Below, piece after piece: positions 1 to 57,011 of a stretch of DNA of 57,011 bases. Under the pieces are notes generated by a model. The model ran no database searches. It was not told the origin of the DNA and was given only the letters and a program-made list of their open reading frames with translations. This DNA is from Escherichia phage vB_EcoM_fHy-Eco03, in the sequence record MW602648.1; one strand, 5' to 3'. A program made the translations under genes and the position numbers. Each line of letters starts with the position of its first letter. Position 1 is the first letter of the stretch.

Positions 1-45
1 GGCGCAAAAAGAAAAAAAGCCGGATTGCTTTTGAAATTATAGACA

Positions 46-74
46 TTTACACAAGTCTTAAACTATGTTACAAT
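46..74 (+). promoter_or_regulatory. Sigma70-like promoter (TTTACA-N17-TGtTACAAT) in terminal repeat
   Basis: TTTACA at 46..51, 17-bp spacer, TACAAT at 69..74 preceded by TG at 66..67; about 40 bp upstream of the ATG at 114. Duplicate at 53358..53386. Confidence 0.5.
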
Positions 75-113
75 AGTTATTATTTACAATGTTAAGCACA
101 ATAGGAATTCATC

Positions 114-311
114 ATGAGCTATACTGACCAACAAATTGACACAGCAGCGGTTTTATTGGCACAAGAGGTAGATTTATTGCATTCTTTGATGAATGCTAGT
201 CATGATAGAGCTGAAACTATCAAGAATCAGATACGGGAAATTTGGTCTCAGCAGGTCAGCAACGGTGTATCTTTGGACTTTTTGGTGTGCCGCCTGAGAG
301 GTCAACTGTAA
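114..311 (+). CDS. Hypothetical protein (65 aa)
   Basis: ATG ORF with AGGAA 6 nt upstream; stop overlaps the next start (TAATG). Confidence 0.5.
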   Translation: MSYTDQQIDTAAVLLAQEVDLLHSLMNASHDRAETIKNQIREIWSQQVSNGVSLDFLVCRLRGQL

Positions 312-736
312 TGGTAAACATAAGAAGCAAGGGCCAGAACTTTGAGCGTAAAATGTCGAAAATGTTCAATGAATCGTTCGGGTTATCTACTGAGAGAAAT
401 CTCCAGCAATCTATAAACGGTGGAGATGATTTGATGGGAGTCCCGTTCTTCAGCGTTGAGCTCAAGAAGCACAACACCAAAGCTATCGGGACTTGGTGGA
501 AGCAATGTGCGGAATCAGCACGGCGTCAAAGCAAGATGCCAGTGCTAATCTATGAGATGCCACGGCAAAAGCCCACTGTCGTGATGAGAATTGAGGACGT
601 CAGTCAAGCTTTGGCTGAGGCACCACTGTTGCCAGCGGCTAGTAACAGGCTCTTTGTGGGCTTGGTGGAATTAACATGGGAACAATTTTGCCGGGTCTAC
701 AACTTTTACGTTGCGCCCGGCGTCGAGGTTGCTTAG
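311..736 (+). CDS. Putative PD-(D/E)xK-family nuclease (141 aa)
   Basis: ATG at 311 overlaps the upstream stop. Motif GGDDLMGVPFFSVELKK (D...ELK) resembles the PD-(D/E)xK nuclease signature. Track ORF 242..736 is the same frame with an upstream start. Confidence 0.4.
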   Translation: MVNIRSKGQNFERKMSKMFNESFGLSTERNLQQSINGGDDLMGVPFFSVELKKHNTKAIGTWWKQCAESARRQSKMPVLIYEMPRQKPTVVMRIEDVSQALAEAPLLPAASNRLFVGLVELTWEQFCRVYNFYVAPGVEVA

Positions 737-774
737 GTTGATGCTTGCATCAACACCAGTCAACTGTAGTTGAC
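737..774. terminator. Two adjacent hairpins between convergent genes
   Basis: GTTGATG-cttg-CATCAAC (737..754) and GTCAAC-tgta-GTTGAC (759..774), between the + gene ending at 736 and the - gene ending at 777; no clear U-run. Confidence 0.3.
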
Positions 775-776
775 AC

Positions 777-962
777 TTAGTCTTGTTTCAACTCATCGCA
801 GATAACGCGTTGATTTTGAGCTGGTACAAACCCGAGTTCGAGCAAAGTGTAAGGACTATCGGCGACGCATTGTTCAATGGTAGTCCATTCAGTTTTGGAT
901 TCAATAATTTTGTAACTACAATCATGAGTAGCCACACATGTTGCCAGGATTAAGCCAATCAC
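777..962 (-). CDS. Hypothetical protein (61 aa, GTG start)
   Basis: GTG start overlaps the upstream stop (GTGA); GAAGGAG Shine-Dalgarno upstream. Confidence 0.45.
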   Translation of the reverse strand: MIGLILATCVATHDCSYKIIESKTEWTTIEQCVADSPYTLLELGFVPAQNQRVICDELKQD

Positions 963-1138
963 AAGTAATCTCCTTCAACCAGAAACTCAAACAATTGGTT
1001 GTAAACGTTGCAACCCTTAGCGAAAGAGCTTTCAGCAGGTTTACCATCGCGGACGATCATCATATATTCACCGCCATGAATATCCACCCAGTATTGCATG
1101 CCACCCTTGACAGGGTTACGTTGTAAGAATTTAAACAT
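959..1138 (-). CDS. Hypothetical protein (59 aa), absent from the ORF track
   Basis: Hand-translated: MFKFLQRNPVKGG...VEGDYL. AAGGAG 7 nt upstream of the ATG; start overlaps the upstream stop (TAATG) and stop overlaps the downstream GTG. Confidence 0.5.
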   Translation of the reverse strand: MFKFLQRNPVKGGMQYWVDIHGGEYMMIVRDGKPAESSFAKGCNVYNQLFEFLVEGDYL

Positions 1139-1383
1139 TATTTGCTCCTTACTCCAAGTTTATTCAATAACCACACTGTCATGTCAACCCAGGTTAACGG
1201 TACAGTTTTCGGGGGTTGATAAGACCAGCACTTTCCAGCTCTTTCCGCAATTTCTTCGCGCCTTGCCGCTTGGCGTAATACTGCATCGTCAGAAGTGCCG
1301 GCAGAAAAAATATCGGCAATACCAGATAAATCGCCTCGATGAACACGTCCAGCAAGTTCATGCAGTTGCTCCTCAGAAAACAT
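1138..1383 (-). CDS. Hypothetical protein (81 aa)
   Basis: ATG start overlaps the stop of the upstream small ORF (ATGTTTTCTGA); part of the coupled leftward array. Confidence 0.5.
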   Translation of the reverse strand: MFSEEQLHELAGRVHRGDLSGIADIFSAGTSDDAVLRQAARREEIAERAGKCWSYQPPKTVPLTWVDMTVWLLNKLGVRSK

Positions 1384-1492
1384 AAGACAACACCATTAGA
1401 ATGATGATAAAGACAGCAACGGCTTTCGCCATGCCACGAGATTCATTATACACCGGATTTTCAGTGGTGTACTCAACAACATGCTTTTTCAT
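1373..1492 (-). CDS. Small hydrophobic protein (39 aa), absent from the ORF track
   Basis: Hand-translated: MKKHVVEYTTENPVYNESRGMAKAVAVFIIILMVLSYVF. GGAGG Shine-Dalgarno upstream; hydrophobic C-terminal half suggests a membrane segment. Confidence 0.45.
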   Translation of the reverse strand: MKKHVVEYTTENPVYNESRGMAKAVAVFIIILMVLSYVF

Positions 1493-1549
1493 ACAACCTC
1501 CAGTGTGAGAAATATCAATTGATGGCACCCGCAGATGCCATCTCAGATA

Positions 1550-2122
1550 TTACTCGCCTTCAGTCTCAGATTTTTCTTCAGTCTGAGGTGCTGCGGCTTC
1601 GTAGACCGTCTTACCATCAGTGATTTTACCGGATTTAACATCGTTACGGTAATAACTCATGTAAGACTGTACAACACGTTTTGATTTAACATCATCTTCA
1701 GCCATTTCACAGGCTTTCATGGCATCCGCAAGAGCGAGTTTTGAATCGTCTTTGTCTGCCAAGTTGTAATCTTTGAAGACCGCGTAACAAGTATCTTTGG
1801 TACTCGGTCCTGAAGATTTACGAGTACAACCAGTTGAACCGGAACGACTAGCTTTCTTCACTTCAACATGCTCAACCTCAAGACTTTCAAGTGCCTTATA
1901 CAAAGCAGGCACCAGAACATCCTTGCTGTCTTTGTGGGTGACAGATGCTTCATCATCAAGACTTTTAATCATCTTGACCAGTTGAGCATTTTGGAACTCT
2001 TTGAGAGCGCCTTTCTCAACAACGATGCAACTCATCATGCCTTCCATTGACAGACCATCTTTGATGCCTTCAACAGAAAAAGCGGAAGTTAAGTAAACAT
2101 ACTGAGTGATAGAATTTTCCAT
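1550..2122 (-). CDS. Hypothetical early protein (190 aa)
   Basis: Long ORF with AAGAGGA Shine-Dalgarno upstream; largest ORF in the terminal repeat. Confidence 0.6.
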   Translation of the reverse strand: MENSITQYVYLTSAFSVEGIKDGLSMEGMMSCIVVEKGALKEFQNAQLVKMIKSLDDEASVTHKDSKDVLVPALYKALESLEVEHVEVKKASRSGSTGCTRKSSGPSTKDTCYAVFKDYNLADKDDSKLALADAMKACEMAEDDVKSKRVVQSYMSYYRNDVKSGKITDGKTVYEAAAPQTEEKSETEGE

Positions 2123-2252
2123 GATTTTGTCCTCTTGTTTGTGGTTGACATCATTATAATGTCATGACTTCAGTTGTTTGTACATCTCAAATCACACATT
2201 TTTGTGCAATTTTTATCATGCGGTACGAATTATACCGCATTGTAAAAATTAC

Positions 2253-2453
2253 TCAAGAAATAATTACCTCAGTAACTACTACAGTGTTAGCAGTCACTAA
2301 TGTCAAAACTTTACCAGCTTTTGACCTCACAGCTTTCAACCGTAATTGTGACTGTGTGTAATTATTCCACTCTTCATCACTGAGCACGGTCCTGGTAACT
2401 TCAGGTCGTTCATCTTTGCCAAGCTTCACTACTGTAACTTTGATTAATGGCAT
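2253..2453 (-). CDS. Hypothetical protein (66 aa)
   Basis: ORF packed 4 nt after the upstream gene. Confidence 0.45.
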   Translation of the reverse strand: MPLIKVTVVKLGKDERPEVTRTVLSDEEWNNYTQSQLRLKAVRSKAGKVLTLVTANTVVVTEVIIS

Positions 2454-2456
2454 TGC

Positions 2457-2684
2457 TTAAACCTCAAATTTTGATTCGTCATATTCAGGGTCAGTCACAT
2501 CACGAGTGACACAATTTTGGAGTGCAGTCCAGTATTTTTGGACTTCAGCACCCTCCATGTATAGTGTCCAACCGTGATAGTAACCCTCGAAACTATTCCA
2601 GGTCCGTTCCCAAATCTTTCCGTCTTCGAGCTTATACTCAGTTGGTCTTGAGTCAAACTCACGGATAGTTGTGAATGTTACCAT
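2457..2684 (-). CDS. Hypothetical protein (75 aa)
   Basis: ORF in the coupled leftward array. Confidence 0.45.
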   Translation of the reverse strand: MVTFTTIREFDSRPTEYKLEDGKIWERTWNSFEGYYHGWTLYMEGAEVQKYWTALQNCVTRDVTDPEYDESKFEV

Positions 2685-2753
2685 GCGTTGTTACGCCTCT
2701 GTTGAATAATTTCAATCATGAACTATCACAACTTTGATAGTTCATTGTTGAAA

Positions 2754-2933
2754 CTATTGTAACTTTGTACTAATTTGAATTGTCAATCTAAACTCTTCAA
2801 GTAAGTTATCAATGTTGGATTTATCTTCCACAGCGGTAGAAATTTGATCACTTACAATTTGAGCATTTGACTCAAGAAGTTCAATCAAATGTGTCAATTC
2901 GTCTGCTGTCAATGTCAATTCTTTCATCATCAT
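2754..2933 (-). CDS. Hypothetical acidic protein (59 aa), absent from the ORF track
   Basis: Hand-translated: MMMKELTLTADELTHLIELLESNAQIV... Start overlaps the stop of the upstream ORF (ATGATGA). Confidence 0.4.
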   Translation of the reverse strand: MMMKELTLTADELTHLIELLESNAQIVSDQISTAVEDKSNIDNLLEEFRLTIQISTKLQ

Positions 2934-3100
2934 TCTCCTGAGTTAAATTGTGTGTCAATTTCAATAACTTTGGAACGTACATATTCCAGACAGTCATCAT
3001 AATCGTATGAAGTGTAACTCGGCATTGGAGAATCCAACCCTTCGTTAACATTCCATTCACCTTCATTAACATCAAACCAGATGATTAATTGAGTATGCAT
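2930..3100 (-). CDS. Hypothetical protein (56 aa), absent from the ORF track
   Basis: Hand-translated: MHTQLIIWFDVNEGEWNVNEGLDSPMPSYTSYDYDDCLEYVRSKVIEIDTQFNSGE. AGGAGT Shine-Dalgarno 8 nt upstream of the ATG. Confidence 0.45.
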   Translation of the reverse strand: MHTQLIIWFDVNEGEWNVNEGLDSPMPSYTSYDYDDCLEYVRSKVIEIDTQFNSGE

Positions 3101-3270
3101 TGTTATTACTCCTGTGTTAAGTTGTTTCAGGTGAGACTACTAAACTACTAATAGTCTCTGGATGAAATAACTTCACAGAGAAACAAAACATGTACCAAAT
3201 TGTTAAAGAGCAAAAGACACCATTGACCATCTACCAGATGTGTCTGTTGACTGGTTAAGTACTAACTACA

Positions 3271-3462
3271 CTAAGTAACTACATGCATCCTCCTGAACCG
3301 TTTCTGTGTCAAGTTGTTCAACACATTCAATAAATACATTATGTCAAAGTCCCTGTTGGTTGTACACAATAGAAGTGCAAGTTTGTGCAAGCTTTTAGAA
3401 ATGATAATCATCTGCGGTTGATAGTGATTCTCGTATGCAATTGATATAGTAACGCTCGTCAC
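3271..3462 (-). CDS. Hypothetical protein (GTG start, uncertain)
   Basis: Track ORF; its 5' end overlaps repeat element A, so the start is uncertain. Confidence 0.3.
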   Translation of the reverse strand: MTSVTISIAYENHYQPQMIIISKSLHKLALLLCTTNRDFDIMYLLNVLNNLTQKRFRRMHVVT

Positions 3463-3545
3463 TACTCAGTGTGAAACAGTCGACGGGGGTAAACGTCACA
3501 CACCGGTGCTATATTAGTTCCCCGGCGCAATTTTTATAAAAAATA
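3440..3545. repeat. Imperfect direct repeat element A (about 100 bp)
   Basis: TTGATATAGTAACGCTCGTCACTACTCAGTGTGAAACAGTCGACGGGGGTAAACGTCACACACCGGTGCTATATTAGTTCCCCGGCGCAATTTTTAT aligns with element B 173 bp downstream. Confidence 0.6.
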
Positions 3546-3612
3546 CAATTTCGTTTGTAATCGTAGACATACGGTATAGTTGCGGCCCGGTACCGTCACG
3601 GTGAGTTGTGAT

Positions 3613-3720
3613 TACGATTGTAATGATAACGCACGTTACTATTCACTCTGAAGGGGTGCCGGGGGGTAATTGTCACCTAGGGGTGTTAATTTAAGCCCCG
3701 GCAAATTTTTTATTTTTTTC
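3613..3720. repeat. Imperfect direct repeat element B, spanning the terminal-repeat boundary
   Basis: TTGTAATGATAACGCACGTTACTATTCACTCTGAAGGGGTGCCGGGGGGTAATTGTCACCTAGGGGTGTTAATTTAAGCCCCGGCAAATTTTTTAT; the repeat boundary (3699/3700) falls inside it at CCCC|GGC. Confidence 0.6.
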
Positions 3721-4697: not shown

Positions 4698-5368
4698 TGA
4701 TTAATATCATGTTTGCTATGGGCAAAAACGGAGAATTCGGCCGTTCGCTGGAACTCCATAAATCGATTGTTGCCCAGTCTACTGACGAAGAGCTTCGCGC
4801 GCTTCCTAAAAATGGTCTCCCTTGGGTTTGTCGACCTGACATGCTCTTTTTCAGGACTATGACTAATGGTATTGCTTCCGATACAGGCTATAACGCATTT
4901 GAGCAGCTCCGCGGTCAATTTCCCAGCCAGCAGGTAAGCTCGGTAATCAATAACGCAGCCGGAGAGACATCCCAACACAACGTAATATTGGCAGGACGCA
5001 AAACCTGGTTGCAGATGAGCTTACCGCCTTCTCGCTATCGCACCTTTTTGCCCGTCAGCAGACAAGTATTCAAGGATAACGCTTTCTTGACGCTTGCTGA
5101 TATGTGCAAACACTGTGAAGACGCCGGAAATGACGTCTGGATTGTGGGTGGCAAGGAATTGATTATGTCAGCGCTGGTCGAGCACTCGCTGGGTGACCTC
5201 CGTGTTGACAACATGTTCATCAGTACAATAGCCAATGCGGGTCCGAGTGACATCCTACTGGACCGAGAAAAAATAATGGCGTACATAGATAGTGACTTCG
5301 CGTATAATGATGAATATGCTGAAAACAACGAAGTACTCATCCAACGATTTAGAGGCAAACACAAATGA
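4694..5368 (+). CDS. Dihydrofolate reductase-like protein
   Basis: DHFR-like motifs recalled from E. coli FolA and T4 Frd: LPW...FF..T, ILAGRKTW...LP..R, VWIVGGKELI. Carries insertions; not aligned. Confidence 0.5.
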   Translation: MMINIMFAMGKNGEFGRSLELHKSIVAQSTDEELRALPKNGLPWVCRPDMLFFRTMTNGIASDTGYNAFEQLRGQFPSQQVSSVINNAAGETSQHNVILAGRKTWLQMSLPPSRYRTFLPVSRQVFKDNAFLTLADMCKHCEDAGNDVWIVGGKELIMSALVEHSLGDLRVDNMFISTIANAGPSDILLDREKIMAYIDSDFAYNDEYAENNEVLIQRFRGKHK

Positions 5369-7399: not shown

Positions 7400-8840
7400 T
7401 TTTGACCTGCACGACAGGCAAGGTGAAGCCCTGCTGTCCCAGGCCACCGAGATTCTTTATGGTGGTGCAGCAGGCGGGGGCAAATCCCACTTGATGCGCA
7501 TTATGGCTATCATTCTTTGCTGTATGATACCTCGTTTACAGATTTACTTGTTTCGCCGTAACTTTAATGACCTGACAGCTAACCATATGGTTGGTCCGTC
7601 AGGTTTTCCTGCATTGCTTGACCATATGGTTAAAGCTGGTAAATGCAAGATTAACTACTCCAGTAACGTGATTAAGTTCTGGAATGGTTCGCACATTAAC
7701 TTGTGTCACCTACAATACGAGAAAGATATATACACCTACCAGGGTGCTGAGATTCACGTTCTGTTAATGGATGAGCTTACTCACTTTACAGAAACGATGT
7801 ATCGATTCCTCCGTAACCGTGTTCGTTTAGGTGCGCTAAAGATTCCAAAGGACTTCTTCCGGCCGCTACCACTCATCTTTTGTGGGTCAAACCCCGGTGG
7901 TATCGGGCACAACTGGGTTAAGCGTACTTTCGTAACAGCTGCACCTCCTATGCACATGGTTAAACAACCTAAGCGTGAAGGTGGTATGATTCGCCAGTAC
8001 ATTCCGGCAAAAATGTCTGATAACCCAACCCTGATGGAAAACGACCCGGACTACGGTGACCGACTCGAAGGTCTGGGTGACCCGGCACTGGTTGCTGCAA
8101 TGAAAGAAGGCGACTGGGATATTGTTGCTGGTGGTGCGCTGGATGACGTGTGGAGTAACAAGTCAGTTATACCACGAATGAAAGTTCCTAAAGGCTGGAC
8201 AATTGAACGTTCAATGGACTGGGGCTCAACGCATCCATTCTCTATTGGTTGGTGGGCCATTTCAAATGGTGCTCCTCTGGTAGATGAGAAGACTGGCGAA
8301 GAGTATCACCTTCCAAACGGCTCATTAATCCGTATAGCTGAATGGTACGGGTGCAAGGAAAACGAAGCTAACACCGGTTTGAAATTGTCTGCAGGTGAAG
8401 TAGCTGACGGTATTCTTGAGATTGAAGAAAACTTGCTACTTGGCGGTTGGATTCATGACAAGCCTTGGCCTGGCCCGGCAGACGGACAGATTTATGCCGT
8501 TAAAGAGCGTGACGTAGAGACCATCGCTAAAAAGATGGAAGACAAAGGTGTGCACTGGGTGCGTGCCGACAAGTCACAGGGCTCAAGAATAAATGGCCTG
8601 GAGCTATTCCGTCAGCGACTGAAAAATGTTAAGATGGATAACTATGAAGAACCAGGCATTTACTTTATGGAAAACTGTACAGCTGCCATAAACACATTGC
8701 CAGTTATTCCGCGTGATAAAAACAACAGCGAAGACGTTGACACACATTCTGAAGACCACGTATATGACGATTGTAGGTACATGGTTCTGCGAGGTGTGAA
8801 TCGTTACGCTACATCATTGAACGTTAAGATGGGACGGTAA
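7389..8840 (+). CDS. Terminase large subunit
   Basis: Walker A YGGAAGGGKSH and Walker B VLLMDELTHF; 483 aa; followed by the portal gene. Confidence 0.85.
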   Translation: MNLDFDLHDRQGEALLSQATEILYGGAAGGGKSHLMRIMAIILCCMIPRLQIYLFRRNFNDLTANHMVGPSGFPALLDHMVKAGKCKINYSSNVIKFWNGSHINLCHLQYEKDIYTYQGAEIHVLLMDELTHFTETMYRFLRNRVRLGALKIPKDFFRPLPLIFCGSNPGGIGHNWVKRTFVTAAPPMHMVKQPKREGGMIRQYIPAKMSDNPTLMENDPDYGDRLEGLGDPALVAAMKEGDWDIVAGGALDDVWSNKSVIPRMKVPKGWTIERSMDWGSTHPFSIGWWAISNGAPLVDEKTGEEYHLPNGSLIRIAEWYGCKENEANTGLKLSAGEVADGILEIEENLLLGGWIHDKPWPGPADGQIYAVKERDVETIAKKMEDKGVHWVRADKSQGSRINGLELFRQRLKNVKMDNYEEPGIYFMENCTAAINTLPVIPRDKNNSEDVDTHSEDHVYDDCRYMVLRGVNRYATSLNVKMGR

Positions 8841-50113: not shown

Positions 50114-50443
50114 ATGATTAAGGCGAAGCTGTTAAAACATATTAGAGGCGGTATCAAACTGCTCAGCGATGGTAATGAGTATCAGCTGAAGCAGCGAGGC
50201 ATTACCAAGGTAGCAGCACTGATGGGAGAGCTGCCGACTCGGTTTTTTACTAAGGCACCTTTGTCACTTATTCCAGCAGCCGAATATTACAAGGACCCAG
50301 AAGCAGCACGTAACAAAATCAAGGAAGCACTCGACCAGTTGGTAGTAGAAGGTTACTTAACGGAACGTAACCACTCTGAAAAATCCGTATACTACAAACC
50401 GACTGACAAGGTAACAAACAATGTCGATGACACCGCAGAATAA
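50114..50443 (+). CDS. Hypothetical protein (109 aa)
   Basis: ORF with AAGGAGG Shine-Dalgarno. Confidence 0.45.
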   Translation: MIKAKLLKHIRGGIKLLSDGNEYQLKQRGITKVAALMGELPTRFFTKAPLSLIPAAEYYKDPEAARNKIKEALDQLVVEGYLTERNHSEKSVYYKPTDKVTNNVDDTAE

Positions 50444-52952
50444 TATTCTCGGTCTGAAATACTTTAAGCCTGAAGGTATTCCACAAGTCTTCAAAGATAT
50501 GAGACGTTGGGGTATTTTTGAGCTGACGTATGAAGACGATAAGCTAGAGGTTCAGGCCAAACCTAAAAAGCCTGCAAGAGCCCCATCCGGGAAATCATAC
50601 AGCACATCCAATGAAGCAGACTGGTTAACCTTTGACGAAGCACTTAATCGTTGTATTCGTAACCGTGAAGCTAAATTGAAAGCTGTGCAGGGTCATATCA
50701 CTTATATCCCGGCTTTGATTGTTCCCCGTAACTGGTACTTTGTCGACCTGGACAACCACGAAGACAACCCAGATATAGAGGCAACCCACAAAGCGATTAT
50801 TGAAGGGACTCGCGGCGCTTACGTAGAAACATCCGTATCTGGTAGAGGCCAGCATATTGCTGTACCTATGCCCTGGACTGTTGCAACGTCCAAAGAGAAA
50901 GATGAGCAGCTGGATATTAAAATCCAGAAGCCTGATATGTTCCTGGTAATGACAGGCAACGTAATCAGCAAGGAATACGCTGACCCGCTTCCAATGAAGC
51001 AATGGCATCAAACTATAGAACAATTCTTTATTGATGCTAACGTACCTGATATTGACGTGTCCTTTGAACAGGACCCAGACCGTGGTGCTGAACACGATAA
51101 AGAGATTTACGAATCGCTGGCAGATAACACTCGCTGGGCGCTTGAGCATTACCTCAACGAGGAAGCTCCTCCGGGTGTTGGTGTAAGTAACGACGGCTCA
51201 GAACGCTTAAGCCGTATATTAAAGGACTTGCTTCGCGCATCCCGCAATTACGAAGTTACTCACCGCATCTTTATGGCGAGTAAAGCTGCAGCATATGAAT
51301 GTCGACGTGCTAACAGAATGTCTTTATCAATCGATAAGTATCACGATTGGTTCGGGCGTGTTGGTAAGACGGTTCTTAAAGAACTCCAACGGGATGGCCT
51401 GTTTGTCAAAACTGAGTTTAAGCTTGACATTAATAAAGAGCTGATGAAACACAGTGGAGTTTCACTCGCTGAAAATGTTAGCTTCAAACCTAAGGATGAG
51501 ATTTCGTCCTCTGACTACTTTGTAAATACTGCACCGTCAGGCTTCAAGCGTTTGATTATGGAGATTCAAAACAATATTGCTCCAGCCAACCGTGTTAACG
51601 ATTATGCCATTGGCATTGCTCTTAACATTCTCAGTAACTGTGCTGGACGAAAGTATGTGTGCCCTGTAGATGGTCACGCTAACTTCCTGGCGACTAATAT
51701 TATTCTTGTGGGTACGTCCTCCATTGGTAAGTCCAATTATACTGAATTGTTCCCTCAGATTCAGGCAAATGTAGCCGAGAATTCGCCATTGAGTTTTGCA
51801 CGTATACCAAGAGAGCAGACGTTTGCAACTCGCCAGTTTGCTGAGCTTATGTCAAACCCGAGCTATCATTCAGTCCAGTTGTTCTATCCCGAGTTTGGGC
51901 AAGCACTCGGTTCTGGTTTACGCATGAATCCTAATAACCCGGATAACTTCCAACGTGCTATTATGGATGCTTCAACCAAGCGTAAAGTTGGCGGTATTCT
52001 TACAGGGATTAAGCGAGCTAATGCTGAGAATGATGTTAAGACTGTTAAAGAACCGTGCTATTCTATTTTAGGTGATTCAACTCTCGAATACATTCTTAAG
52101 TACACACATAAAGATGACTTCTCATCAGGCTTTTTGCCCCGCTTCCTGTTCATTCCGAACTACGAGCGAGCGGACTTCCAGAAACCTGAGAAAGTGGGCA
52201 GACGCAAAGAGATTACACGCGTTAAGTTCAGCGAAGAGCTAGTCAGCTGGCTTGAGGCAATTGCGTTTACCAGTATTATCCCGGGCAACGGTATGCTTAA
52301 GCCTGACCCTATTCCTGTATACGATGAATCAGACGACGATGACATCCTGTATGAGTATCAGTGCAAGATTATTGATATGCGCCGTTACTATAGGGATAAC
52401 GAGATAGCTTCTGCATTCATTGGCCGTATGGGTGAATATGTTTTCAACATTGCTGCATTGATTGGCTTACTCGATAACTGGGACAATCCTGTAATGACAC
52501 GTAACAACATCGAATGGGCTTACCGTTATGTATTACGGTGTATCACTTCGTGGGTTAATGAAGTAAGTAATGTTGTAGCTCCGCCTACTACCGATGCTGA
52601 AGTAGTTGACGGTATCCTCAAAGTCTACAGGGACCTTTTGGCACTGTATAACGACAAAGGATGGGAAGGCGTCAAACAAGGCTATCCTGAGAAGGTTACC
52701 CGCAATTTCAGAGAAGAACATCTCAAGATGAACGGGTTGCCAATCTATGCTATTCGCCAATCATTAAGCTGGTTTAAGAACAATTACGGCTTCAATATTG
52801 TTGCGAATAATAAGGCAATTGACGGCATGCTGCAGGACATGATTGAACAGGATTATCTTGCAATTCAAATGCTAACTGCCCACAAGGGGAAGCCTGGCAA
52901 GGTCTTTTGTCTTACCGAACGAGGATATGAGATAGCGAAGAAGCTTAAGTAA
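50421..52952 (+). CDS. Primase-polymerase (prim-pol) fused to a P-loop helicase-like domain
   Basis: N-terminal prim-pol motifs YFVDLDNHED (DxD) and SVSGRGQHIAV (sGxGxH); C-terminal Walker A ILVGTSSIGKS; 843 aa. Confidence 0.55.
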   Translation: MSMTPQNNILGLKYFKPEGIPQVFKDMRRWGIFELTYEDDKLEVQAKPKKPARAPSGKSYSTSNEADWLTFDEALNRCIRNREAKLKAVQGHITYIPALIVPRNWYFVDLDNHEDNPDIEATHKAIIEGTRGAYVETSVSGRGQHIAVPMPWTVATSKEKDEQLDIKIQKPDMFLVMTGNVISKEYADPLPMKQWHQTIEQFFIDANVPDIDVSFEQDPDRGAEHDKEIYESLADNTRWALEHYLNEEAPPGVGVSNDGSERLSRILKDLLRASRNYEVTHRIFMASKAAAYECRRANRMSLSIDKYHDWFGRVGKTVLKELQRDGLFVKTEFKLDINKELMKHSGVSLAENVSFKPKDEISSSDYFVNTAPSGFKRLIMEIQNNIAPANRVNDYAIGIALNILSNCAGRKYVCPVDGHANFLATNIILVGTSSIGKSNYTELFPQIQANVAENSPLSFARIPREQTFATRQFAELMSNPSYHSVQLFYPEFGQALGSGLRMNPNNPDNFQRAIMDASTKRKVGGILTGIKRANAENDVKTVKEPCYSILGDSTLEYILKYTHKDDFSSGFLPRFLFIPNYERADFQKPEKVGRRKEITRVKFSEELVSWLEAIAFTSIIPGNGMLKPDPIPVYDESDDDDILYEYQCKIIDMRRYYRDNEIASAFIGRMGEYVFNIAALIGLLDNWDNPVMTRNNIEWAYRYVLRCITSWVNEVSNVVAPPTTDAEVVDGILKVYRDLLALYNDKGWEGVKQGYPEKVTRNFREEHLKMNGLPIYAIRQSLSWFKNNYGFNIVANNKAIDGMLQDMIEQDYLAIQMLTAHKGKPGKVFCLTERGYEIAKKLK

Positions 52953-52965
52953 AGAGTAAGTAAAT

Positions 52966-53009
52966 CAAGGACTTATGCTGTAGACGTTATAGCTAAGTCC
53001 TTGTTTTTT
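52966..53009 (+). terminator. Rho-independent terminator after the primase gene
   Basis: 10-bp stem CAAGGACTTA (52966..52975) / TAAGTCCTTG (52994..53003) followed by TTTTTT. Confidence 0.7.
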
Positions 53010-53185
53010 ATACTGTTTCCCAAAAACTGATTAACGTTTATACTATAGTCTTTATATAAACACTAAACTACTGATTTTATTACTCTTTTTTACCCGTATA
53101 AATATAAGCTCTCCTTTAAATAAATAAGGGGGGAAAAAGAAAATACGGTCCCGGAAAAAGAGAGTTATTATTATTATTTATTTAT

Positions 53186-53203
53186 TATATATATATATAT
53201 ATT
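53186..53203. repeat. (TA)n dinucleotide microsatellite in an AT-rich low-complexity spacer
   Basis: TATATATATATATATATT within the AT-rich noncoding region 53040..53312, preceded by ATTATTATTATTTATTTATT. Confidence 0.8.
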
Positions 53204-53357
53204 TATATAAAAGATAGAGAGTATTTAAAACAAGTACTTAGGCATCCTTATTCATGTAATCCGGTTATATGTATTATATAATTATCAGATTGGATAAGAA
53301 AAAGTTATTGCCGGCGCAAAAAGAAAAAAAGCCGGATTGCTTTTGAAATTATAGACA

Positions 53358-53386
53358 TTTACACAAGTCTTAAACTATGTTACAAT
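53358..53386 (+). promoter_or_regulatory. Copy of the terminal-repeat promoter (TTTACA-N17-TGtTACAAT)
   Basis: Duplicate of 46..74. Confidence 0.5.
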
Positions 53387-53425
53387 AGTTATTATTTACA
53401 ATGTTAAGCACAATAGGAATTCATC

Positions 53426-53623
53426 ATGAGCTATACTGACCAACAAATTGACACAGCAGCGGTTTTATTGGCACAAGAGGTAGATTTATTGCATTCTTTG
53501 ATGAATGCTAGTCATGATAGAGCTGAAACTATCAAGAATCAGATACGGGAAATTTGGTCTCAGCAGGTCAGCAACGGTGTATCTTTGGACTTTTTGGTGT
53601 GCCGCCTGAGAGGTCAACTGTAA
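53426..53623 (+). CDS. Hypothetical protein (duplicate of 114..311)
   Basis: Identical copy in the right terminal repeat. Confidence 0.5.
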   Translation: MSYTDQQIDTAAVLLAQEVDLLHSLMNASHDRAETIKNQIREIWSQQVSNGVSLDFLVCRLRGQL

Positions 53624-54048
53624 TGGTAAACATAAGAAGCAAGGGCCAGAACTTTGAGCGTAAAATGTCGAAAATGTTCAATGAATCGTTCGGGTTATCT
53701 ACTGAGAGAAATCTCCAGCAATCTATAAACGGTGGAGATGATTTGATGGGAGTCCCGTTCTTCAGCGTTGAGCTCAAGAAGCACAACACCAAAGCTATCG
53801 GGACTTGGTGGAAGCAATGTGCGGAATCAGCACGGCGTCAAAGCAAGATGCCAGTGCTAATCTATGAGATGCCACGGCAAAAGCCCACTGTCGTGATGAG
53901 AATTGAGGACGTCAGTCAAGCTTTGGCTGAGGCACCACTGTTGCCAGCGGCTAGTAACAGGCTCTTTGTGGGCTTGGTGGAATTAACATGGGAACAATTT
54001 TGCCGGGTCTACAACTTTTACGTTGCGCCCGGCGTCGAGGTTGCTTAG
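53623..54048 (+). CDS. Putative PD-(D/E)xK-family nuclease (duplicate of 311..736)
   Basis: Identical copy in the right terminal repeat. Confidence 0.4.
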   Translation: MVNIRSKGQNFERKMSKMFNESFGLSTERNLQQSINGGDDLMGVPFFSVELKKHNTKAIGTWWKQCAESARRQSKMPVLIYEMPRQKPTVVMRIEDVSQALAEAPLLPAASNRLFVGLVELTWEQFCRVYNFYVAPGVEVA

Positions 54049-54088
54049 GTTGATGCTTGCATCAACACCAGTCAACTGTAGTTGACAC

Positions 54089-54274
54089 TTAGTCTTGTTT
54101 CAACTCATCGCAGATAACGCGTTGATTTTGAGCTGGTACAAACCCGAGTTCGAGCAAAGTGTAAGGACTATCGGCGACGCATTGTTCAATGGTAGTCCAT
54201 TCAGTTTTGGATTCAATAATTTTGTAACTACAATCATGAGTAGCCACACATGTTGCCAGGATTAAGCCAATCAC
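54089..54274 (-). CDS. Hypothetical protein (duplicate of 777..962)
   Basis: Identical copy in the right terminal repeat. Confidence 0.45.
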   Translation of the reverse strand: MIGLILATCVATHDCSYKIIESKTEWTTIEQCVADSPYTLLELGFVPAQNQRVICDELKQD

Positions 54275-54450
54275 AAGTAATCTCCTTCAACCAGAAACTC
54301 AAACAATTGGTTGTAAACGTTGCAACCCTTAGCGAAAGAGCTTTCAGCAGGTTTACCATCGCGGACGATCATCATATATTCACCGCCATGAATATCCACC
54401 CAGTATTGCATGCCACCCTTGACAGGGTTACGTTGTAAGAATTTAAACAT
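54271..54450 (-). CDS. Hypothetical protein (duplicate of 959..1138)
   Basis: Identical copy in the right terminal repeat. Confidence 0.5.
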   Translation of the reverse strand: MFKFLQRNPVKGGMQYWVDIHGGEYMMIVRDGKPAESSFAKGCNVYNQLFEFLVEGDYL

Positions 54451-54695
54451 TATTTGCTCCTTACTCCAAGTTTATTCAATAACCACACTGTCATGTCAAC
54501 CCAGGTTAACGGTACAGTTTTCGGGGGTTGATAAGACCAGCACTTTCCAGCTCTTTCCGCAATTTCTTCGCGCCTTGCCGCTTGGCGTAATACTGCATCG
54601 TCAGAAGTGCCGGCAGAAAAAATATCGGCAATACCAGATAAATCGCCTCGATGAACACGTCCAGCAAGTTCATGCAGTTGCTCCTCAGAAAACAT
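54450..54695 (-). CDS. Hypothetical protein (duplicate of 1138..1383)
   Basis: Identical copy in the right terminal repeat. Confidence 0.5.
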   Translation of the reverse strand: MFSEEQLHELAGRVHRGDLSGIADIFSAGTSDDAVLRQAARREEIAERAGKCWSYQPPKTVPLTWVDMTVWLLNKLGVRSK

Positions 54696-54804
54696 AAGAC
54701 AACACCATTAGAATGATGATAAAGACAGCAACGGCTTTCGCCATGCCACGAGATTCATTATACACCGGATTTTCAGTGGTGTACTCAACAACATGCTTTT
54801 TCAT
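54685..54804 (-). CDS. Small hydrophobic protein (duplicate of 1373..1492)
   Basis: Identical copy in the right terminal repeat. Confidence 0.45.
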   Translation of the reverse strand: MKKHVVEYTTENPVYNESRGMAKAVAVFIIILMVLSYVF

Positions 54805-54861
54805 ACAACCTCCAGTGTGAGAAATATCAATTGATGGCACCCGCAGATGCCATCTCAGATA

Positions 54862-55434
54862 TTACTCGCCTTCAGTCTCAGATTTTTCTTCAGTCTGAGG
54901 TGCTGCGGCTTCGTAGACCGTCTTACCATCAGTGATTTTACCGGATTTAACATCGTTACGGTAATAACTCATGTAAGACTGTACAACACGTTTTGATTTA
55001 ACATCATCTTCAGCCATTTCACAGGCTTTCATGGCATCCGCAAGAGCGAGTTTTGAATCGTCTTTGTCTGCCAAGTTGTAATCTTTGAAGACCGCGTAAC
55101 AAGTATCTTTGGTACTCGGTCCTGAAGATTTACGAGTACAACCAGTTGAACCGGAACGACTAGCTTTCTTCACTTCAACATGCTCAACCTCAAGACTTTC
55201 AAGTGCCTTATACAAAGCAGGCACCAGAACATCCTTGCTGTCTTTGTGGGTGACAGATGCTTCATCATCAAGACTTTTAATCATCTTGACCAGTTGAGCA
55301 TTTTGGAACTCTTTGAGAGCGCCTTTCTCAACAACGATGCAACTCATCATGCCTTCCATTGACAGACCATCTTTGATGCCTTCAACAGAAAAAGCGGAAG
55401 TTAAGTAAACATACTGAGTGATAGAATTTTCCAT
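54862..55434 (-). CDS. Hypothetical early protein (duplicate of 1550..2122)
   Basis: Identical copy in the right terminal repeat. Confidence 0.6.
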   Translation of the reverse strand: MENSITQYVYLTSAFSVEGIKDGLSMEGMMSCIVVEKGALKEFQNAQLVKMIKSLDDEASVTHKDSKDVLVPALYKALESLEVEHVEVKKASRSGSTGCTRKSSGPSTKDTCYAVFKDYNLADKDDSKLALADAMKACEMAEDDVKSKRVVQSYMSYYRNDVKSGKITDGKTVYEAAAPQTEEKSETEGE

Positions 55435-55564
55435 GATTTTGTCCTCTTGTTTGTGGTTGACATCATTATAATGTCATGACTTCAGTTGTTTGTACATCTC
55501 AAATCACACATTTTTGTGCAATTTTTATCATGCGGTACGAATTATACCGCATTGTAAAAATTAC

Positions 55565-55765
55565 TCAAGAAATAATTACCTCAGTAACTACTACAGTGTT
55601 AGCAGTCACTAATGTCAAAACTTTACCAGCTTTTGACCTCACAGCTTTCAACCGTAATTGTGACTGTGTGTAATTATTCCACTCTTCATCACTGAGCACG
55701 GTCCTGGTAACTTCAGGTCGTTCATCTTTGCCAAGCTTCACTACTGTAACTTTGATTAATGGCAT
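55565..55765 (-). CDS. Hypothetical protein (duplicate of 2253..2453)
   Basis: Identical copy in the right terminal repeat. Confidence 0.45.
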   Translation of the reverse strand: MPLIKVTVVKLGKDERPEVTRTVLSDEEWNNYTQSQLRLKAVRSKAGKVLTLVTANTVVVTEVIIS

Positions 55766-55768
55766 TGC

Positions 55769-55996
55769 TTAAACCTCAAATTTTGATTCGTCATATTCAG
55801 GGTCAGTCACATCACGAGTGACACAATTTTGGAGTGCAGTCCAGTATTTTTGGACTTCAGCACCCTCCATGTATAGTGTCCAACCGTGATAGTAACCCTC
55901 GAAACTATTCCAGGTCCGTTCCCAAATCTTTCCGTCTTCGAGCTTATACTCAGTTGGTCTTGAGTCAAACTCACGGATAGTTGTGAATGTTACCAT
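55769..55996 (-). CDS. Hypothetical protein (duplicate of 2457..2684)
   Basis: Identical copy in the right terminal repeat. Confidence 0.45.
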   Translation of the reverse strand: MVTFTTIREFDSRPTEYKLEDGKIWERTWNSFEGYYHGWTLYMEGAEVQKYWTALQNCVTRDVTDPEYDESKFEV

Positions 55997-56065
55997 GCGT
56001 TGTTACGCCTCTGTTGAATAATTTCAATCATGAACTATCACAACTTTGATAGTTCATTGTTGAAA

Positions 56066-56245
56066 CTATTGTAACTTTGTACTAATTTGAATTGTCAATC
56101 TAAACTCTTCAAGTAAGTTATCAATGTTGGATTTATCTTCCACAGCGGTAGAAATTTGATCACTTACAATTTGAGCATTTGACTCAAGAAGTTCAATCAA
56201 ATGTGTCAATTCGTCTGCTGTCAATGTCAATTCTTTCATCATCAT
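56066..56245 (-). CDS. Hypothetical protein (duplicate of 2754..2933)
   Basis: Identical copy in the right terminal repeat. Confidence 0.4.
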   Translation of the reverse strand: MMMKELTLTADELTHLIELLESNAQIVSDQISTAVEDKSNIDNLLEEFRLTIQISTKLQ

Positions 56246-56412
56246 TCTCCTGAGTTAAATTGTGTGTCAATTTCAATAACTTTGGAACGTACATATTCCA
56301 GACAGTCATCATAATCGTATGAAGTGTAACTCGGCATTGGAGAATCCAACCCTTCGTTAACATTCCATTCACCTTCATTAACATCAAACCAGATGATTAA
56401 TTGAGTATGCAT
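56242..56412 (-). CDS. Hypothetical protein (duplicate of 2930..3100)
   Basis: Identical copy in the right terminal repeat. Confidence 0.45.
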   Translation of the reverse strand: MHTQLIIWFDVNEGEWNVNEGLDSPMPSYTSYDYDDCLEYVRSKVIEIDTQFNSGE

Positions 56413-56582
56413 TGTTATTACTCCTGTGTTAAGTTGTTTCAGGTGAGACTACTAAACTACTAATAGTCTCTGGATGAAATAACTTCACAGAGAAACAAAA
56501 CATGTACCAAATTGTTAAAGAGCAAAAGACACCATTGACCATCTACCAGATGTGTCTGTTGACTGGTTAAGTACTAACTACA

Positions 56583-56774
56583 CTAAGTAACTACATGCAT
56601 CCTCCTGAACCGTTTCTGTGTCAAGTTGTTCAACACATTCAATAAATACATTATGTCAAAGTCCCTGTTGGTTGTACACAATAGAAGTGCAAGTTTGTGC
56701 AAGCTTTTAGAAATGATAATCATCTGCGGTTGATAGTGATTCTCGTATGCAATTGATATAGTAACGCTCGTCAC
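56583..56774 (-). CDS. Hypothetical protein (duplicate of 3271..3462)
   Basis: Identical copy in the right terminal repeat. Confidence 0.3.
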   Translation of the reverse strand: MTSVTISIAYENHYQPQMIIISKSLHKLALLLCTTNRDFDIMYLLNVLNNLTQKRFRRMHVVT

Positions 56775-57011
56775 TACTCAGTGTGAAACAGTCGACGGGG
56801 GTAAACGTCACACACCGGTGCTATATTAGTTCCCCGGCGCAATTTTTATAAAAAATACAATTTCGTTTGTAATCGTAGACATACGGTATAGTTGCGGCCC
56901 GGTACCGTCACGGTGAGTTGTGATTACGATTGTAATGATAACGCACGTTACTATTCACTCTGAAGGGGTGCCGGGGGGTAATTGTCACCTAGGGGTGTTA
57001 ATTTAAGCCCC

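Follow-up and report, generated by a model that had tools for sequence, protein, structure and literature searches.

What is the stretch of 360 non-coding bases that lies between the primase/helicase gene of Escherichia phage vB_EcoM_fHy-Eco03 and the right-hand copy of its terminal repeat, and does any part of it serve replication or the making of the genome ends? The window, i.e., the whole stretch of DNA analysed here, comprises 57,011 bp with 45.1% GC and is the complete phage genome; its positions 1-3699 and 53313-57011 are 100% identical and form an exact direct terminal repeat (DTR) of 3,699 bp, confirming the terminal repeat named in an earlier account made from the letters alone (the sequence-only reading). 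Length, GC content, and DTR size agree with the published description of fHy-Eco03, a member of Rosemountvirus, for which the termini were assigned with PhageTerm and verified by restriction digestion (PMC8145870). With 3.7-kb direct repeats as its termini, the genome has no lambda-type cos site with cohesive single-stranded ends. A 54-nt imperfect palindrome (2705-2758, equal to 56017-56070; 83.6% self-complementary) is located where the DTR is richest in A+T. Comparison of sequences among related phages suggests that the stretch is a cis-acting region of the DTR junction, with a boundary signal that was validated independently and a conserved A/T-only tract with a putative role. The argument starts from three features:

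50421-52952, plus strand: primase/helicase of 843 aa (phrog_3022 'DNA primase', 1e-159), adjoining the spacer upstream
52966-53009, plus strand: intrinsic terminator of the primase gene, with arms CAAGGACTTA (52966-52975) and TAAGTCCTTG (52994-53003) and a T6 run (53004-53009)
53165-53212, no strand assigned: G/C-free microsatellite tract, made up of (TTA)4 at 53165-53176 and (TA)8 at 53186-53201 (TRF rows 53165-53209)

The 360 non-coding bases are bounded by the primase stop (52952) and the DTR start (53313) and include the terminator hairpin, which the sequence-only reading had placed in front of them. The terminator RNA folds at -22 kcal/mol (z = -5.7), a value equalled by 0/200 shuffles, and is kept in 13/15 of the related phages. 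Positions 53040-53312 have an A+T content of 76% (genome, 55%); no other region is richer in A+T at any of the window sizes tested (60, 100, 200, and 273 bp), which bears out the description of the stretch as extremely AT-rich. The global minimum of nearest-neighbour duplex stability falls at 53166-53215 (z = 6.4), although this calculation assumes plain DNA and may be off because the virion DNA of fHy-Eco03 appears to be modified (PMC8145870); with that reservation, the expression "easily melted" holds as a physical property of the tract. Positions 53165-53212 comprise 48 bp without a single G or C; the second-longest run of this kind in the genome measures 20 bp, and ~1e-8 such runs of 47 bp or more would be expected by chance. 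The genome's only dinucleotide repeat of at least five units, (TA)8 at 53186-53201, is part of this run. All the strings previously described are present in the window, including ATTATTATTATTTATTTATT, which starts at 53167 in the tract, and AAGGGGGGAAAAAGAAAA at 53126-53143; the (TA)8-9 run reported at 53186-53203 also exists, but is (TA)8 and ends 2 nt earlier. The DNA of fHy-Eco03 was refractory to nine of 10 restriction enzymes, suggesting a base modification of unknown kind (PMC8145870); by contrast, DNA of phage S144 was cut with SspI and PacI, which have A/T-only recognition sites (PMC7432712). Should it be G or C that is modified in fHy-Eco03, no part of the genome longer than the 48-bp tract would be free of the modification.

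No ORF of at least 40 aa was found between 52953 and 53425, and a hidden gene in the spacer was rejected on this basis. A cruciform or hairpin in the tract was likewise rejected (DNA fold of -3 kcal/mol, z = +1.06), as was a known RNA family, the sole Rfam match being a sub-threshold preQ1-II hit attributable to chance (22.6 bits vs. a gathering score of 47). Taken by its composition and stability, the G/C-free tract is a candidate unwinding or flexible element.

The homologous spacer was aligned from 14 relatives, representing Rosemountvirus, Loughboroughvirus, Erwinia phage SOI901, and Salmonella phage KM. A G/C-free tract of 29-66 bp is present in 15/15 phages, i.e., in both genera as well as in SOI901 and KM, so that the absence from relatives that would have spoken against a role was not encountered; SOI901 keeps the tract although its primase is only 42% identical. 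Within the tract G/C is 0%, as compared to 27-37% GC in neighbouring spacers, and the top strand is T-rich (58-65% T) in all 15 phages. The distance from the end of the tract to the cut, which is ~100 bases in fHy-Eco03 (cut at 53312/53313, the slash here and below marking the cut), is 93 bp in nine phages and 93-134 bp across all 15. The relatives thus agree in the composition, strand polarity, and position of the tract and differ in its sequence and exact length. In BP63-like isolates with near-identical flanks, the tract measures 51, 52, 53, and 66 bp and differs by repeat-unit indels, in line with the earlier suggestion that it is a source of length variation. Tract-length differences of 1-2 bp among isolates argue against a rigid helical-phase spacer and fit melting or flexibility. 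The microsatellite lies outside any ORF of at least 40 aa and outside any promoter spacer (a conserved promoter is 145 bp off), and there is therefore no obvious target that a change in length would switch.

Divergence is faster across the entire spacer than in the genes on either side; between the window and its closest relative, KE25, identity is 58% in the spacer, 74% in the 3′ end of the primase gene, and 89% in the PDDEXK gene downstream. The A/T tract of the Loughboroughviruses S144 and AEV23, by contrast, is identical to that of the Rosemountviruses yarpen and JEP7. Judged from these two comparisons, the spacer (52953-53312) looks like a mosaic joint or a recombination hot spot. Gene order is identical in all relatives, with no synteny break that would separate linkage of the tract to the primase from linkage to the DTR. 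The phage family is narrow, and the next primase homologues beyond these relatives are only ~22% identical; a protein scan of IMG/VR gave three loci and a pattern scan of metagenomes gave one true relative and two chance matches, the wider database scans yielding one further relative. In the depositors' records of brunost, yarpen, ciri, triss, and relatives (MT074441 etc., e.g., 4764-4821 in locus coordinates), the A/T microsatellite carries a bare 'repeat_region' annotation with no function, and the A/T repeat itself had therefore already been noticed earlier. Small 'hypothetical protein' ORFs are annotated in the spacers of KE24 (993-1245), KE25 (8346-8444), and KM (553-1023; all in locus coordinates); because they overlap the microsatellite and conserved boxes and are missing from the window, they are probably over-calls.

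The tract is embedded in an array of shorter elements, which lie in the spacer and just inside the repeat:

53063-53085, plus strand: c2, a degenerate second direct copy of CTAAGnnnnTGwTTTTATTACT, in an aligned block conserved across relatives
53126-53158, plus strand: purine/G-box block AAGGGGGGAAAAAGAAAATACGGTCCCGGAAAAAG, corresponding to AAGGGGGTAAnAAAGGGGGATAC..ACCGGATAAAAGGGGG in relatives
53227-53241, minus strand: c3, the c-motif in inverted orientation (minus-strand sequence CTAAGTACTTGTTTT), forming a 22-nt inverted repeat with 86% complementarity
53258-53266, no strand assigned: ATCCGGTT box, one of the CCGG(A/T)T boxes that are repeated in both orientations in the same region of relatives
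53358-53386, plus strand: sigma-70-type early promoter TTTACA-17-TACAAT with TG (10/12 matches), 45 nt inside the DTR

The order of these elements is common to the relatives. A terminator with CTAAGnnCTTGwTTT arms is followed ~100 nt on by a second direct copy, the purine/G-box, and the tract; after the tract come the inverted motif, CCGG(A/T)T boxes, an A-run with GCC/GGCG, A-runs with GyCGGATTG, and the sigma-70 promoter. The 15-nt c-motif has three copies, two direct and one inverted, which are unique to the spacer and bracket the tract; the arms of the terminator are themselves copies of this motif. Across the whole window the CTAAGNNCTTGTTTT pattern matches only at 52962, 52993, and 53227, and the top strand of c3, AAAACA...ACTTA, is invariant in 15/15 of the related phages. 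One to three G-boxes stand next to the tract and are degenerate in the window. Runs of G6 occur in the non-redundant genome only at 53128-53133 and 3661-3666, both on the top strand and 185 nt and 38 nt, respectively, upstream of the corresponding DTR cuts; both sites read GGGGGTAAT in most relatives. This box is present at the right boundary in 7/7 phages and at the left boundary in most relatives; a role for GGGGGTAAT as an element common to both boundaries was not upheld, given that the left copy in the window is degenerate and that the box shows no genome-wide enrichment. Read in reverse complement, the repeated c-motif corresponds to the IHF consensus; four matches (at most one mismatch) occur in 363 bp vs. 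0.44 expected from genome density, and one such minus-strand match, in the c2 block, lies ~103-112 nt past the stop codon in 11/15 phages. When shuffles of matched composition serve as the reference, the motif is not enriched (P = 0.1).

The early promoter at 53358-53386 is conserved in 12/15 of the related phages, has A-runs directly upstream, and is predicted to drive g01 and a PDDEXK/RusA-like gene (53623-54045; PF24608 at 7e-20). In SPLA12, AV127, and KE24, an anti-repressor (Ant) cassette with its own upstream region replaces this promoter directly after AAAAAACCGGACTG; the site of the cassette, ~35 nt inside the DTR, marks a point of module exchange just inside the repeat.

The two edges of the repeat, the left at 53312/53313 and the right at 3699/3700, are marked as follows, together with a related site inside the DTR:

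53296-53312, plus strand: AAGAAAAAGTTATTGCC, the outer half-box at the left boundary, which abuts the mapped cut 53312/53313
53313-53339, plus strand: inner half of the left boundary, the first bases of the DTR, GGCGCAAAAAGAAAAAAAGCCGGATTG
3661-3719, minus strand: right DTR boundary module, with the GGGGGGTAAT box at 3661-3670 and the cut at 3699/3700; conserved in 7/7 phages
3485-3545 (DTR copy 56797-56857), minus strand: internal pseudo-boundary, consisting of GGGGG, CCCCGGCGCAA ~32 nt later, and then a 17-nt A/T run

An asymmetric box, A5-7..TT..GCC/GGCG, is located at the left DTR edge, where the sequence reads AAGAAAAAGTTATTGCC/GGCGCAAAAAG, and an inverted copy is located at the other edge, where the minus strand reads AAAAAAATAAAAAATTTGCC/GGGGC from its outer half inwards. 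With at most one mismatch, the AAAAANNNNNNGCCGGSGC pattern matches the window only at 53299 (plus strand) and 3695 (minus strand); 0.12 matches are expected, and two or more were reached in 0/100 shuffles. A stricter regular expression for the box, run on the window and ~75 kb of related loci, found only the predicted boundaries and one pseudo-site (3523). The record of phage Sz carries a DTR of 4,263 bp with its left end at exactly the homologous base, and its inverted boundaries have the cut in register (AAAAAATTTACGCT/GGC vs. AAAAAAATTCCGCT/GGC). The same inverted pair, with the cut in register and 3.6-4.3 kb between boxes, is found in 7/7 phages with enough DNA. Box spacing alone gives the three independently mapped DTRs (3,699, 4,263, and 3,915 bp). 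The last of these was predicted for S144 before the PhageTerm value for AEV23, a phage with 97% identity, was found; the published DTR of AEV23 is 3,915 bp (PMC12918118), and box spacing in the AEV23 sequence itself is also 3,915 bp. The mapped ends of the three phages fall at one and the same box position, and the SB2 record stops 1 nt short of the cut.

In the AEV23 record (OR810919.1, ~53,895-55,637), ~1.7 kb of foreign DNA, containing an IS5-family transposase, a methyltransferase, and ~50-nt tandem repeats, is joined at the physical left end /GGCGGAAAA, and the break between phage and foreign DNA falls exactly at /GGCGG; the deposited sequence is probably chimeric here as a result of assembly. 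At 176 bp inwards from the true right edge of the DTR, the internal pseudo-boundary resembles a tandem duplication of the right boundary module, and Sz has it in the same arrangement; it is not used as a terminus, as PhageTerm mapping shows the outer site only.

Box spacing, mapped ends, and record breaks agree, and the last ~17 bp of the spacer are thus half of a repeat-edge signal. The proposal that the stretch is part of a concatemer-processing site is supported for its last ~17-20 bp, where the box is inverted at the other DTR edge and the mapped ends of three phages coincide. The box also yields true ends and DTR lengths for Rosemountvirus and Loughboroughvirus records that were deposited circularly permuted and without repeats; predicted lengths are 4,270 bp for brunost, 4,006 bp for KE25, 3,936 bp for KM, 3,915 bp for S144, and 3,631 bp for SOI901.

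The accepted mechanism of DTR formation, the T7/T3 model, is 3′ extension from staggered nicks (PMC5557969), and an asymmetric, inverted box with the break at the same position at both edges would fit this route. We tentatively favour, as a possibility held with limited confidence, the reading that the stretch is a conserved non-coding control region on the unique-side flank of the left DTR boundary, in which nicks at the inverted boxes would prime DTR-duplicating synthesis and the A/T tract would be an element for unwinding or loading. As concatemers are processed, each box would be nicked site-specifically and on one strand only, the left box on the top strand and the right box on the bottom strand; each nick would leave an outside ...GCC-3′OH that could be extended into the repeat, displacing the 5′-GGCG strand, and the 3.7-kb DTR would be duplicated by this strand displacement. 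At the A/T tract and its flanking boxes, the duplex would be opened or bent and a helicase/polymerase or terminase complex assembled for synthesis and packaging, so that the tract would be an origin-like element coupled to end formation. This reading is favoured because of the fixed distance between tract and cut, the invariant boxes flanking the tract, and a positional parallel with phage T7. Several observations count against it, namely that microsatellites can persist by slippage without selection, that the left G-box is degenerate in the window, and that the IHF-like motif does not exceed its frequency in shuffles. Furthermore, the A/T run at the right boundary is just 17 bp long, and a long tract is therefore unnecessary for cutting as such. 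A more far-reaching version, which we regard as doubtful, is that the spacer and the two inverted boxes together would be the first cis elements known to specify how a myovirus makes a kilobase-long terminal repeat; here, a strand-specific nickase (terminase or a partner) would read A-run..TT..GCC/GGCG at both edges, and the tract would load the replisome that copies the entire 3.7-kb repeat with strand displacement. If this were true, replication initiation and end formation would share one element.

Two other readings of the tract are each unlikely in our estimate. The tract may be the unwinding element of the main replication origin, with the primase/helicase (through a C-terminal winged helix) or a host factor binding the boxes, and its closeness to the DTR edge would then be incidental. 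Its place fits, since the least stable DNA of the genome lies directly downstream of the primase/helicase gene, and so do the G-boxes alongside and the bracketing by three copies of a 15-nt motif found nowhere else; composition conserved without sequence is typical of unwinding elements. The primase/helicase may also carry a C-terminal DNA-binding domain: although the 843-aa protein matched no Pfam family at E ≤ 0.01, its C-terminal ~45 aa (52815-52949) gave a weak, sub-threshold PadR/wHTH match in 9/9 phages tested (best E of 0.0015), with the conserved pattern ...DxxL..M....L........G......LTE.G. A single-sequence AF2 model of this C-terminus was unusable (pLDDT 53), the protein database searched gave no homologues of it, and a profile search of the PDB gave no meaningful match. 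Several points count against an origin of this kind. There is no exact match to the DnaA box TTWTNCACA and the one-mismatch matches are not conserved in position; one motif copy is a terminator arm, leaving no clear array of four or more iterons; and the AAAACA..ACTTA box is invariant even in SOI901 and KM, where identity of the primase C-terminus is down to ~30%, an observation at odds with co-evolution of an initiator and its iterons. The fixed spacing of 93 bp to the cut suggests a link to the boundary instead. GC skew follows the direction of transcription and is uninformative on the origin.

Alternatively, the tract may have no specific role and represent a microsatellite maintained by slippage in an AT-rich spacer, function being confined to the terminator, the boundary box, and the early promoter; this we consider just as improbable as the origin. 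Unconserved sequence and length, repeat-unit indels between close isolates, a spacer that outpaces its flanking genes, and a tract with neither structure nor RNA family match are all what such a spacer would show, and the right boundary functions while lacking such a tract. These points must be set against its retention in 15/15 phages, at 0% G/C over 29-66 bp and with constant polarity and position, its bracketing by invariant boxes, and a chance expectation of ~1e-8. Least likely, in our judgement, is an upstream regulatory or architectural role in early transcription; AT DNA that is curved, or bound by proteins of the IHF, Fis, or H-NS type, would then tune the promoter at 53358-53386 or shield it from transcripts running on out of the primase operon. 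A conserved sigma-70 promoter with A-runs just upstream does lie 145 bp downstream of the tract, and the IHF-like matches exceed the number expected from genome density; this excess disappears, however, against composition-matched shuffles, the tract is too distant from the -35 hexamer for an UP element, and the copy of the promoter at the left end of the injected DNA has no such upstream region, as the DTR starts 45 nt before it.

Outside T7, how kilobase-long exact repeats are defined and duplicated is poorly understood, and the DTR junction of these phages provides a short, conserved, and testable signal at both edges of the repeat as well as a conserved unwinding-type tract beside one of them. 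As these phages are under development for biocontrol of Salmonella and E. coli, the cis elements that should be left undisturbed also matter for engineering.

Among systems with which the junction can be compared, T5 and SPO1 share kilobase-long exact terminal repeats with early genes; we know of no comparable boundary box or A/T tract at their junctions. Both are listed among the phages with long DTRs (PMC5557969). The DNA-unwinding elements of iteron-type origins (lambda ori, E. coli oriC, and the ori of P4 with its alpha primase-helicase) resemble the spacer, which has extreme local A+T, a stability minimum, adjacent short repeated boxes, and a neighbouring primase/helicase gene with, possibly, a C-terminal winged helix. 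Unlike iteron-type origins, the spacer has no DnaA boxes and only two to three motif copies, one of them within a terminator, and its boxes do not co-vary with the primase C-terminus. Simple-sequence contingency loci share short-unit tandem repeats and length polymorphism among close isolates; the repeat of fHy-Eco03 differs from them in being outside reading frames and promoter spacers.

The right end of T7 is the closest parallel in layout. Its phiOR is a secondary origin, and sequences at the T7 right end are needed for concatemer processing. T7 also has fixed termini and an exact direct repeat, although of 160 bp as compared to 3.7-4.3 kb in these phages, and these phages, unlike T7, use host RNA polymerase and have no phage-polymerase promoter. 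The AT maximum to the left of the right repeat in T7 (74%) is just downstream of the annotated phiOR and ~480 bp from the repeat, whereas the tract of fHy-Eco03 is a G/C-free microsatellite ~100 bp from the cut. The T7 boundaries have no inverted box, share none with each other or with fHy-Eco03, and show no sequence similarity. As T7 is without a comparable inverted box, the analogy is one of position only: in both, unique DNA with an AT-rich segment near the junction lies immediately to the left of the right-hand repeat.
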